From NCBI GenBank assembly GCA_047631715.1, contig JBLICC010000017.1, forward strand, positions 1 to 19,315: a stretch of DNA of 19,315 nucleotides. Reading direction: 5' to 3'. Position numbers and translations under genes: made by a program. This document shows, piece after piece, positions 1 to 352 of this stretch. Under the pieces are notes generated by a model, which saw nothing but the letters and a program-made list of their open reading frames with translations, searched no databases and had not been told where the DNA came from. This DNA is from Alteromonas naphthalenivorans (GTDB lineage: Bacteria; Babelota; Babeliae; Babelales; CAIQNR01). Position 1 is the first letter of the stretch, and each line of letters starts with the position of its first letter.

Positions 1-352
1 GAGTTACCGGTAATTGATAGTTGTGATCTGTATATAAAGAAATTGCATGTTTTAAATTATTTGTAGTAGTAGGTATTGGTACTGAATGATCATCTTCCAA
101 ACCTAAGTCATCAACCAAATTATTAATAGTCTCAAACATATTATCTTCAGGATTATTTGTACTAAAAGGTAAATGAACTGTTTTCCCATCACTAGACGAT
201 AGTTTGACTGTTGTATCATGGCGTGCGGGTAATTGACGAGACATTGCAAGTGCTCTCTCATATTCTTCTGCACTAAAATCATCTTGTGCTGCACCAGCTG
301 CTTGTAAACTAACTATCGAAAATAAACTTAAAACTACTGCTAACTTCTTCAT
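1..352 (-). CDS. Secreted protein with UIM-like motif and Skp1-like BTB/POZ domain (partial, runs off the left edge; not in ORF track)
   Basis: Manual translation from ATG at 352 (GGAGG at 358-362, 5-nt spacer) is open for 117 codons: MKKLAVVLSLFSIVSLQA-AGAAQDDFSAEEYERALAMSRQLPARHDTTVKLSSSDGKTVHLPFSTNNPEDNMFETINNLVDDLGLEDDHSVPIPTTTNNLKHAISLYTDHNYQLPVT. It has a signal peptide, EEYERALAMS fits the UIM pattern, and VKLSSSDG...TINNLVDDLG...VPIP...LKHAI resembles the Skp1 N-terminal domain. Confidence 0.85.
   Translation of the reverse strand, partial: MKKLAVVLSLFSIVSLQAAGAAQDDFSAEEYERALAMSRQLPARHDTTVKLSSSDGKTVHLPFSTNNPEDNMFETINNLVDDLGLEDDHSVPIPTTTNNLKHAISLYTDHNYQLPVT

Follow-up and report, generated by a model that had tools for sequence, protein, structure and literature searches.

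To our knowledge, the bacteria that hijack the SCF (Skp1-Cul1-F-box) ubiquitin ligases of their hosts do so with F-boxes that bind the host's Skp1. One such F-box effector, AnkB from Legionella, appears as a complex with Skp1. Here we describe a family of bacterial proteins that carry a Skp1-type domain themselves, beginning with a truncated gene at the end of a 19,315-nucleotide contig (JBLICC010000017.1). We call this contig, over its full length, the window; it is contig C17 of a Babelota genome that we label G000 (844,823 bases, 58 contigs, 90% complete). Among named genomes, the closest FtsZ (77% identity) carries the label Candidatus Babelota, and one relative of the family is labeled Candidatus Babeliales. 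Described members of the Babelota are intracellular parasites of protists (PMC6561590, PMC4776705, PMC4378268). By analogy, the source bacterium is presumably a protist parasite.

The closest precedent is the PEX1 family of Protochlamydia, as described in the available text of PMC4209131. PEX1 is an expanded and partly tandem family from a symbiont of protists, with an N-terminal BTB domain and C-terminal leucine-rich repeats (LRRs). It was proposed to recruit host ligases, and families that combine RING or F-box domains with LRRs occur alongside it. The same text calls Chlamydiae the only bacteria with BTB domains. Because BTB-LRR effectors were already described in Chlamydiae, the novelty of our family is lower. 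We compared the two families by description only. Both are expanded BTB-LRR families in protist-associated bacteria, but they belong to different phyla, and PEX1 has a type III signal while the Babelota family has a predicted Sec-type signal. Also, the PEX1 domain is described there as BTB, with no subtype given, whereas the Babelota domain is Skp1-type. Papers on the Babelota name F-box, RING, USP, WD40, LRR, and ankyrin proteins (PMC4776705, PMC4378268). "Skp" and "BTB" are absent from the main text of PMC4776705, and in the available text of PMC4378268 they occur only in a reference title. We found no report of a Skp1 family from the Babelota in the literature that we searched, which did not include supplements or most subscription papers.

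We propose that these proteins are exported, one-chain cullin adaptors that act in the cytosol of the protist host, with the Skp1 core on Cul1, the LRRs holding a substrate, and the host performing the ubiquitination. We put the probability of this reading at roughly 55%. The observations behind it are a Skp1-type domain, its fusion to LRRs, an undetectable F-box-binding tail, the expansion of the family, and an exchange of RING and Skp1 modules.

The window gene and its paralogs

The initial annotation described the first 352 nucleotides of the window as a truncated gene with a ribosome-binding site and a signal peptide. The gene (2..352, reverse strand) begins with ATG at position 352, 4 nt downstream of GGAGGT (357..362, reverse strand), and is open for all of its 117 codons; ATG at 364 and TTG at 367 are alternative in-frame starts. 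The N-terminus of the protein is basic and then hydrophobic, and a predicted Sec-type signal peptide occupies residues 1-18 or so (299..352, with the cleavage site placed by eye). A similar start is common to the paralogs. This call comes from a crude hydrophobicity rule, and 269 of the 780 open reading frames (ORFs) in our searches of G000 satisfy it. The gene is indeed cut, but it is cut because contig C17 itself stops there, and not just by the edge of a window.

The segment that was said to align with eukaryotic Skp1 is present in the translation, with TVKLSS beginning at nt 211. It opens a Skp1-type BTB core (2..211, reverse strand) with strands B1-B3 and helices A1-A3, as assigned from profile matches and from the predicted secondary structure of a paralog. 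This is the first two-thirds of the core; helices A4-A5 lie beyond the break. Helix A2 and the following loop (101..133) match the conserved T-I-x-N-x-x-x-D-L-G of Skp1 in alignments, and the P-x-P of strand B3 is at 71..79. There, Thr replaces the Asn of Skp1's PxPN motif, which contacts Cul1 (PMC1257465).

Several searches support the resemblance to Skp1 that the annotation had drawn by eye. Against a profile of 24 eukaryotic Skp1s, the fragment scored 30.5 bits, while the best of 5000 shuffled sequences (4866 of them reported) reached 9.2 bits. The fragment's top match in Pfam was Skp1_POZ (E = 0.0074; 16.9 bits, which is under the curated cut-off of 21.9), and its best match in the PDB, using phmmer, was Skp1a from Dictyostelium (E = 0.0035). 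One paralog, P0003, exceeds the Skp1_POZ cut-off (37.2 bits). (Labels such as P0003 denote proteins, and labels such as L002 denote loci that we fetched.) At E ≤ 0.0011, the profile of the 24 eukaryotic Skp1s singled out 8 of the 780 ORFs; the ORF ranked after them had E = 0.17. We also built a family profile from 13 sequences (8 from G000 and 5 domains from relatives). When this profile was compared to the PDB, 33 Skp1 sequences ranked first (E = 3e-18 to 2e-4), followed by ElonginC (E = 1e-3), and a profile-profile comparison with Skp1 gave a probability of 98.5. The classical BTB family (PF00651) had no match in G000 or in scans of the paralogs.

The predicted fold of one complete paralog is a BTB core. 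In this model, the core begins at B1, helix A5 is present, and the N-terminal β1/α1 dimer extension of long-form BTBs is absent; in a structural alignment, the model is 35% identical to Skp1 and 20% identical to ElonginC. Judging from sequence, the domain is Skp1-type, rather than a long-form BTB.

G000 encodes eight paralogs. Besides the window gene, contig C1 has three of them, C2 has two, and C30 and C38 have one apiece. Three of the eight run into the end of a contig. The other five are complete (407-696 amino acids) and have a signal-like start, the Skp1 core, a linker of ~70 residues, an LRR N-cap, LRRs, and a C-cap. As all five are LRR fusions, the stand-alone form of the adaptor (~160 residues) was not encountered, and by analogy the window gene probably continues into a linker and LRRs. 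Over the aligned part, the window fragment is 62% identical to the complete paralog P0005 and 56% identical to P0002, and it clusters with these two in a tree (SH-aLRT support 93).

The F-box-binding tail, the RING sister gene, and the cullin

In Skp1, the core makes the contact with Cul1, and two C-terminal helices bind F-boxes (PMC1257465, PMC5282575). A profile for these helices (α7/α8, at 15 bits or more) matched 15 of 16 eukaryotic controls and 0 of 51 bacterial proteins; several of the latter are truncated. Across the 261 Babelota genomes of our range scans, PF01466 was not found, in a scan without a positive control. In the paralog model, the structural match to Skp1 stops at model residue 100. 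A degenerate remnant of α7 is possible, because the hhalign alignment extends weakly across α7.

We also looked for F-boxes after the core. F-box profiles had no match at E ≤ 0.5 in 26/26 post-core segments and none in G000. The motif LPxE[ILV], which we take to mark where helix 1 of an F-box begins, was seen after the core in 7 of 30 relatives, as compared to 1 of 58 background windows. None of the G000 copies shows it clearly, and we treat the enrichment as a lead only. In L009, L020, and L027, which have no match to F-box profiles, the core is followed by an α7-like helix and then by an LPxEI helix, as if Skp1 were fused to the start of an F-box.

With no detectable F-box-binding tail and with LRRs in the same chain, these proteins would stand in for both Skp1 and the F-box protein. 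The suggestion in the initial annotation that the protein mimics Skp1 itself thus needs to be divided. The Skp1-type domain, the BTB-core model, and the ubiquitin-ligase context agree with it, but for the reasons just given the protein would not be a stand-alone Skp1.

In the mechanism that we favor, the proteins would be exported by Sec and then by a type II system or in vesicles. (G000 encodes two secretins.) The Skp1 core would dock on the N-terminus of host Cul1, taking the place of Skp1, and the linker would cover the surface that is usually covered by the F-box. The LRRs would capture a substrate, which the host's Cul1-Rbx1-E2 module would ubiquitinate.

The upstream neighbor of the window gene (608..1468, reverse strand) encodes a signal peptide, a RING-H2 domain (zf-RING_2 in Pfam, E = 2.7e-8), and LRRs (LRR_8, E = 1.2e-18), and it has the same LRR N-cap as the paralogs of the Skp1 family. 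It likely encodes a secreted E3 ligase and is likely a sister gene with a different E3 module. In G001, a comparison genome from the same genus, the two genes that in G000 border the C1 array and the LRR tail on contig C42 enclose a single RING-H2-LRR gene, with a C-cap similar to the family's. Since this gene occupies the slot of the G000 array, a RING module and a Skp1 module take turns at one site, on a common LRR scaffold. This genomic context points to a use in ubiquitin ligases.

The exchange also bears on whether the proteins could be decoys that bind host Cul1 but block or misplace SCF assembly, with the LRRs as anchors or localization signals. The evidence from the Skp1 core applies to a decoy as well. 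In the SCF, the F-box also contacts Cul1; as none could be detected behind the core, a productive geometry is not assured. But a single gene would be enough for a decoy, without the need for many that differ in their repeat domains, and the exchange for a catalytic RING module on a shared LRR scaffold fits substrate delivery. We consider a decoy to be distinctly unlikely.

Another cullin might be recruited: one like Cul2 or Cul5, as by ElonginC, or one like Cul3, as by BTB adaptors. Without the tail, the domain has an extent like that of ElonginC. Structural Z scores tie among Skp1, ElonginC, and BTBs, and the cullin-facing motifs are altered. However, the E values given above place the sequence much nearer to Skp1 than to ElonginC, and the model has no long-form extension. 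Also, at E ≤ 1e-5, PF00651 is found in 3 of the 261 genomes, as compared to 34 of 261 for Skp1_POZ. We give this alternative a slim chance.

The third alternative is a diverged subfamily that does not bind cullins. It might bind another partner of Skp1 (Sgt1 or Skp1 itself), or it might only cap the fold of an LRR protein that acts at the cell surface or in the vacuole. Several observations favor this alternative and weigh against Cul1 adaptors. On the Skp1 core profile, the G000 subfamily scores 14-47 bits versus 21-93 bits for relatives, which places it among the most diverged. The cullin-facing motif residues have diverged: of PxPN, the eight G000 copies retain the first Pro (8/8) and the second Pro (7/8), but the Asn in just 1/8. 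(The Asn is present in only 13 of the 24 eukaryotic Skp1s, which were chosen as matches of the bacterial profile.) A motif in A4 related to ANYL is present, with its Asn changed to Asp in 4/6 copies. The ratio of nonsynonymous to synonymous substitution rates (dN/dS) is near 0.5 (range 0.25-0.76, and 0.43-0.64 for the window copy versus six paralogs), and the paralogs' LRRs are most similar to extracellular-type and secreted bacterial LRRs. Sgt1 is described as using the same surface of Skp1 as Cul1 does (PMC5282575), and Skp1 cores are described as homodimerizing (10.1101/764126). Conversely, the segment from A2 to B3 retains its Asp in 8/8 copies, like the first Pro of PxP. The RING sister genes would depend on E2 and ubiquitin from the host, and this speaks for an LRR scaffold that gets into the cytosol. 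Overall, we view a role without cullins as unlikely. (Our estimates for the alternatives overlap a little.)

Other genes of the window and the break at the contig end

Between the signal peptide and the Skp1 core, the window copy has a helix (residues 27-42; 227..274, reverse strand) that resembles a ubiquitin-interacting motif (UIM). The Pfam match is under the cut-off (12.6 bits versus 21; E = 0.13), and among the G000 paralogs it is found in the window copy only. The UIM pattern (an acidic stretch, then Φ-x-x-A-x-x-x-S) is present; it occurs in 2 of the 269 ORFs of G000 that pass the crude signal rule and in 2 of the 511 others. In the range scans, UIM was found in 19 of 261 genomes (6 above the cut-off), G000 not among them, and in 0 of 14 controls. 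In some other Babelota proteins it follows a signal peptide, and in two cases it precedes a ubiquitin hydrolase domain. Given these occurrences, a UIM in the window copy is plausible, and this weak motif may bind ubiquitin. Signal peptides followed by a UIM and either a USP-type deubiquitinase domain or WD40 repeats were seen at L066:454-1683 (−), L067:1270-2526 (+), and L062:97-1632 (−).

Seven RING-H2 genes in G000 have signal-like starts. Besides the window's neighbor, RING-H2 genes lie at C53:2343-3889 (three in tandem), C26:8999-9799, C13:5510-6064, and C28:5358-6179. Close to the paralogs on C2, another signal-bearing protein (L002; C2:31275-33134) has motifs that are reminiscent of cytosolic phospholipase A2 or lysophospholipase.

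Farther into the window, 1590-3740 (reverse strand) encodes a protein with multiple membrane spans and C-terminal tetratricopeptide repeats (TPRs), which has DNA matches in several relatives and may resemble TMTC-type glycosyltransferases. The region from 4624 to 18995 holds housekeeping genes: a deoxynucleoside kinase, a 2-hydroxyacid dehydrogenase, and a laccase-domain protein, as assigned with Pfam, and tyrosyl-tRNA synthetase, ftsA, ftsZ, and secA, as assigned by eye. It also has several small signal-bearing ORFs without Pfam matches.

The annotation proposed to retrieve the full gene from adjacent sequence. No other contig of G000 overlaps the end of C17, and among the pieces listed from two public DNA runs, none extends past position 3, so the rest of the gene is not retrievable. 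In both runs, the assembly breaks into short pieces at the end of the window gene. Contigs from both carry a variant copy at 56-82, which differs by four substitutions and by one-base indels at 59 and 63 that compensate each other; this is another paralog or an allele. After the TPR gene, G001 has a class I tRNA synthetase (L076:15596-18076; probably valyl-tRNA synthetase, by exclusion) and then genes that are on contig C11 in G000. No ortholog of this synthetase was found in the G000 assembly (the best matches had 25-37% identity), which implies a real gap beyond position 1, between C17 and C11.

The break raises the question of whether the window copy is a pseudogene or a mis-assembled fragment without a product. 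The contig ends inside the gene, the public contigs show the variant, and such families are described as shedding pseudogenes (PMC4209131). But the ribosome-binding site and the frame are intact, and the dN/dS of 0.43-0.64 argues against a dead copy. Furthermore, another contig stops within a second paralog, three codons earlier, as in breaks caused by repeats, and the missing synthetase indicates a real gap. A dead copy seems highly improbable to us.

Distribution in the Babelota and comparison with known adaptors

Skp1_POZ was found in 46 of the 261 Babelota genomes (45 above the cut-off), often in tandem arrays, and in 0 of 14 controls. We surveyed fusions at E ≤ 1e-5 in 32 proteins, one per fetched locus (excluding L006). 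The partners were WD40 (14 proteins), LRR (3), ankyrin (2), or an M48 peptidase (1), and 12 had none. Most of the surveyed Skp1_POZ proteins start with a signal-like sequence, by eye. The peptidase fusion is at L041:334-1692 (−). L007:931-3153, L023:958-3111, P0018, and P0036 have two tandem Skp1-like domains ahead of the repeats, which could bind two cullins.

The LRR subfamily of G000 has 10 additional members from other samples. In a quick tree that was otherwise unresolved, 17 of its rows grouped together (SH-aLRT support 92). G001 had no match to the family profile. Two sampled database entries of the family are named just "hypothetical protein."

Across the phylum, the Babelota might have captured Skp1 and made it into a toolkit of one-chain SCF receptors. 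Each would have a core that docks on Cul1, a linker that replaces the F-box in cis (with an F-box-like LPxE helix in some WD40 members), and a swappable LRR, WD40, or ankyrin domain, and neither Skp1 nor an F-box protein from the host would be needed. We rate this broader proposal at somewhat less than an even chance.

The family resembles eukaryotic Skp1 in its BTB core, in its A2 motif, and, with some residues changed, in its B3 and A4 motifs. Unlike Skp1, the proteins are bacterial, begin with a signal-like sequence, carry LRRs joined to the core by a linker, and lack a detectable α7/α8 tail, and their binding to Cul1 is a prediction. Like bacterial and viral F-box effectors, they would redirect the SCF to new substrates via repeat domains, but those effectors need the host's Skp1 and the Babelota proteins would replace it. 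Cul3 BTB adaptors and viral BTB-kelch proteins also combine cullin docking and substrate binding in one chain. The Babelota proteins differ from these in lacking the long-form dimer extension, in sequence (4-16% identity in the structural comparison), and in their predicted cullin, Cul1. They differ from ElonginC in identity (20%, versus 35% for Skp1), in the helix A5 of the model, and in the fusion to repeats. On our reading, the family falls short of a complete Skp1, and it would function in the manner of Cul3-type BTB adaptors or F-box effectors without belonging to either group. The nearest viral folds are Skp1/BTB proteins of giant viruses (E = 1.3e-3 and weaker). No cullin was found in the phylum, in a scan without a positive control. 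Full-length cullin-1-like proteins do occur on contigs labeled as giant-virus metagenome-assembled genomes (L048:2836-4875 and L051:1099-3189).

The Babelota would be a second bacterial phylum with BTB-fold effectors, if our interpretation of these proteins is correct. Replacing Skp1 and the F-box protein with a single chain would open another way into the SCF, and such a chain would compete with all of the host's SCF receptors for Cul1. Natural one-chain adaptors for Cul1 would inform the study of SCF receptor exchange and could serve as degradation tools. With the domain in 46 of 261 genomes, the family offers a testable handle on how a widespread and barely cultured phylum controls its protist hosts.
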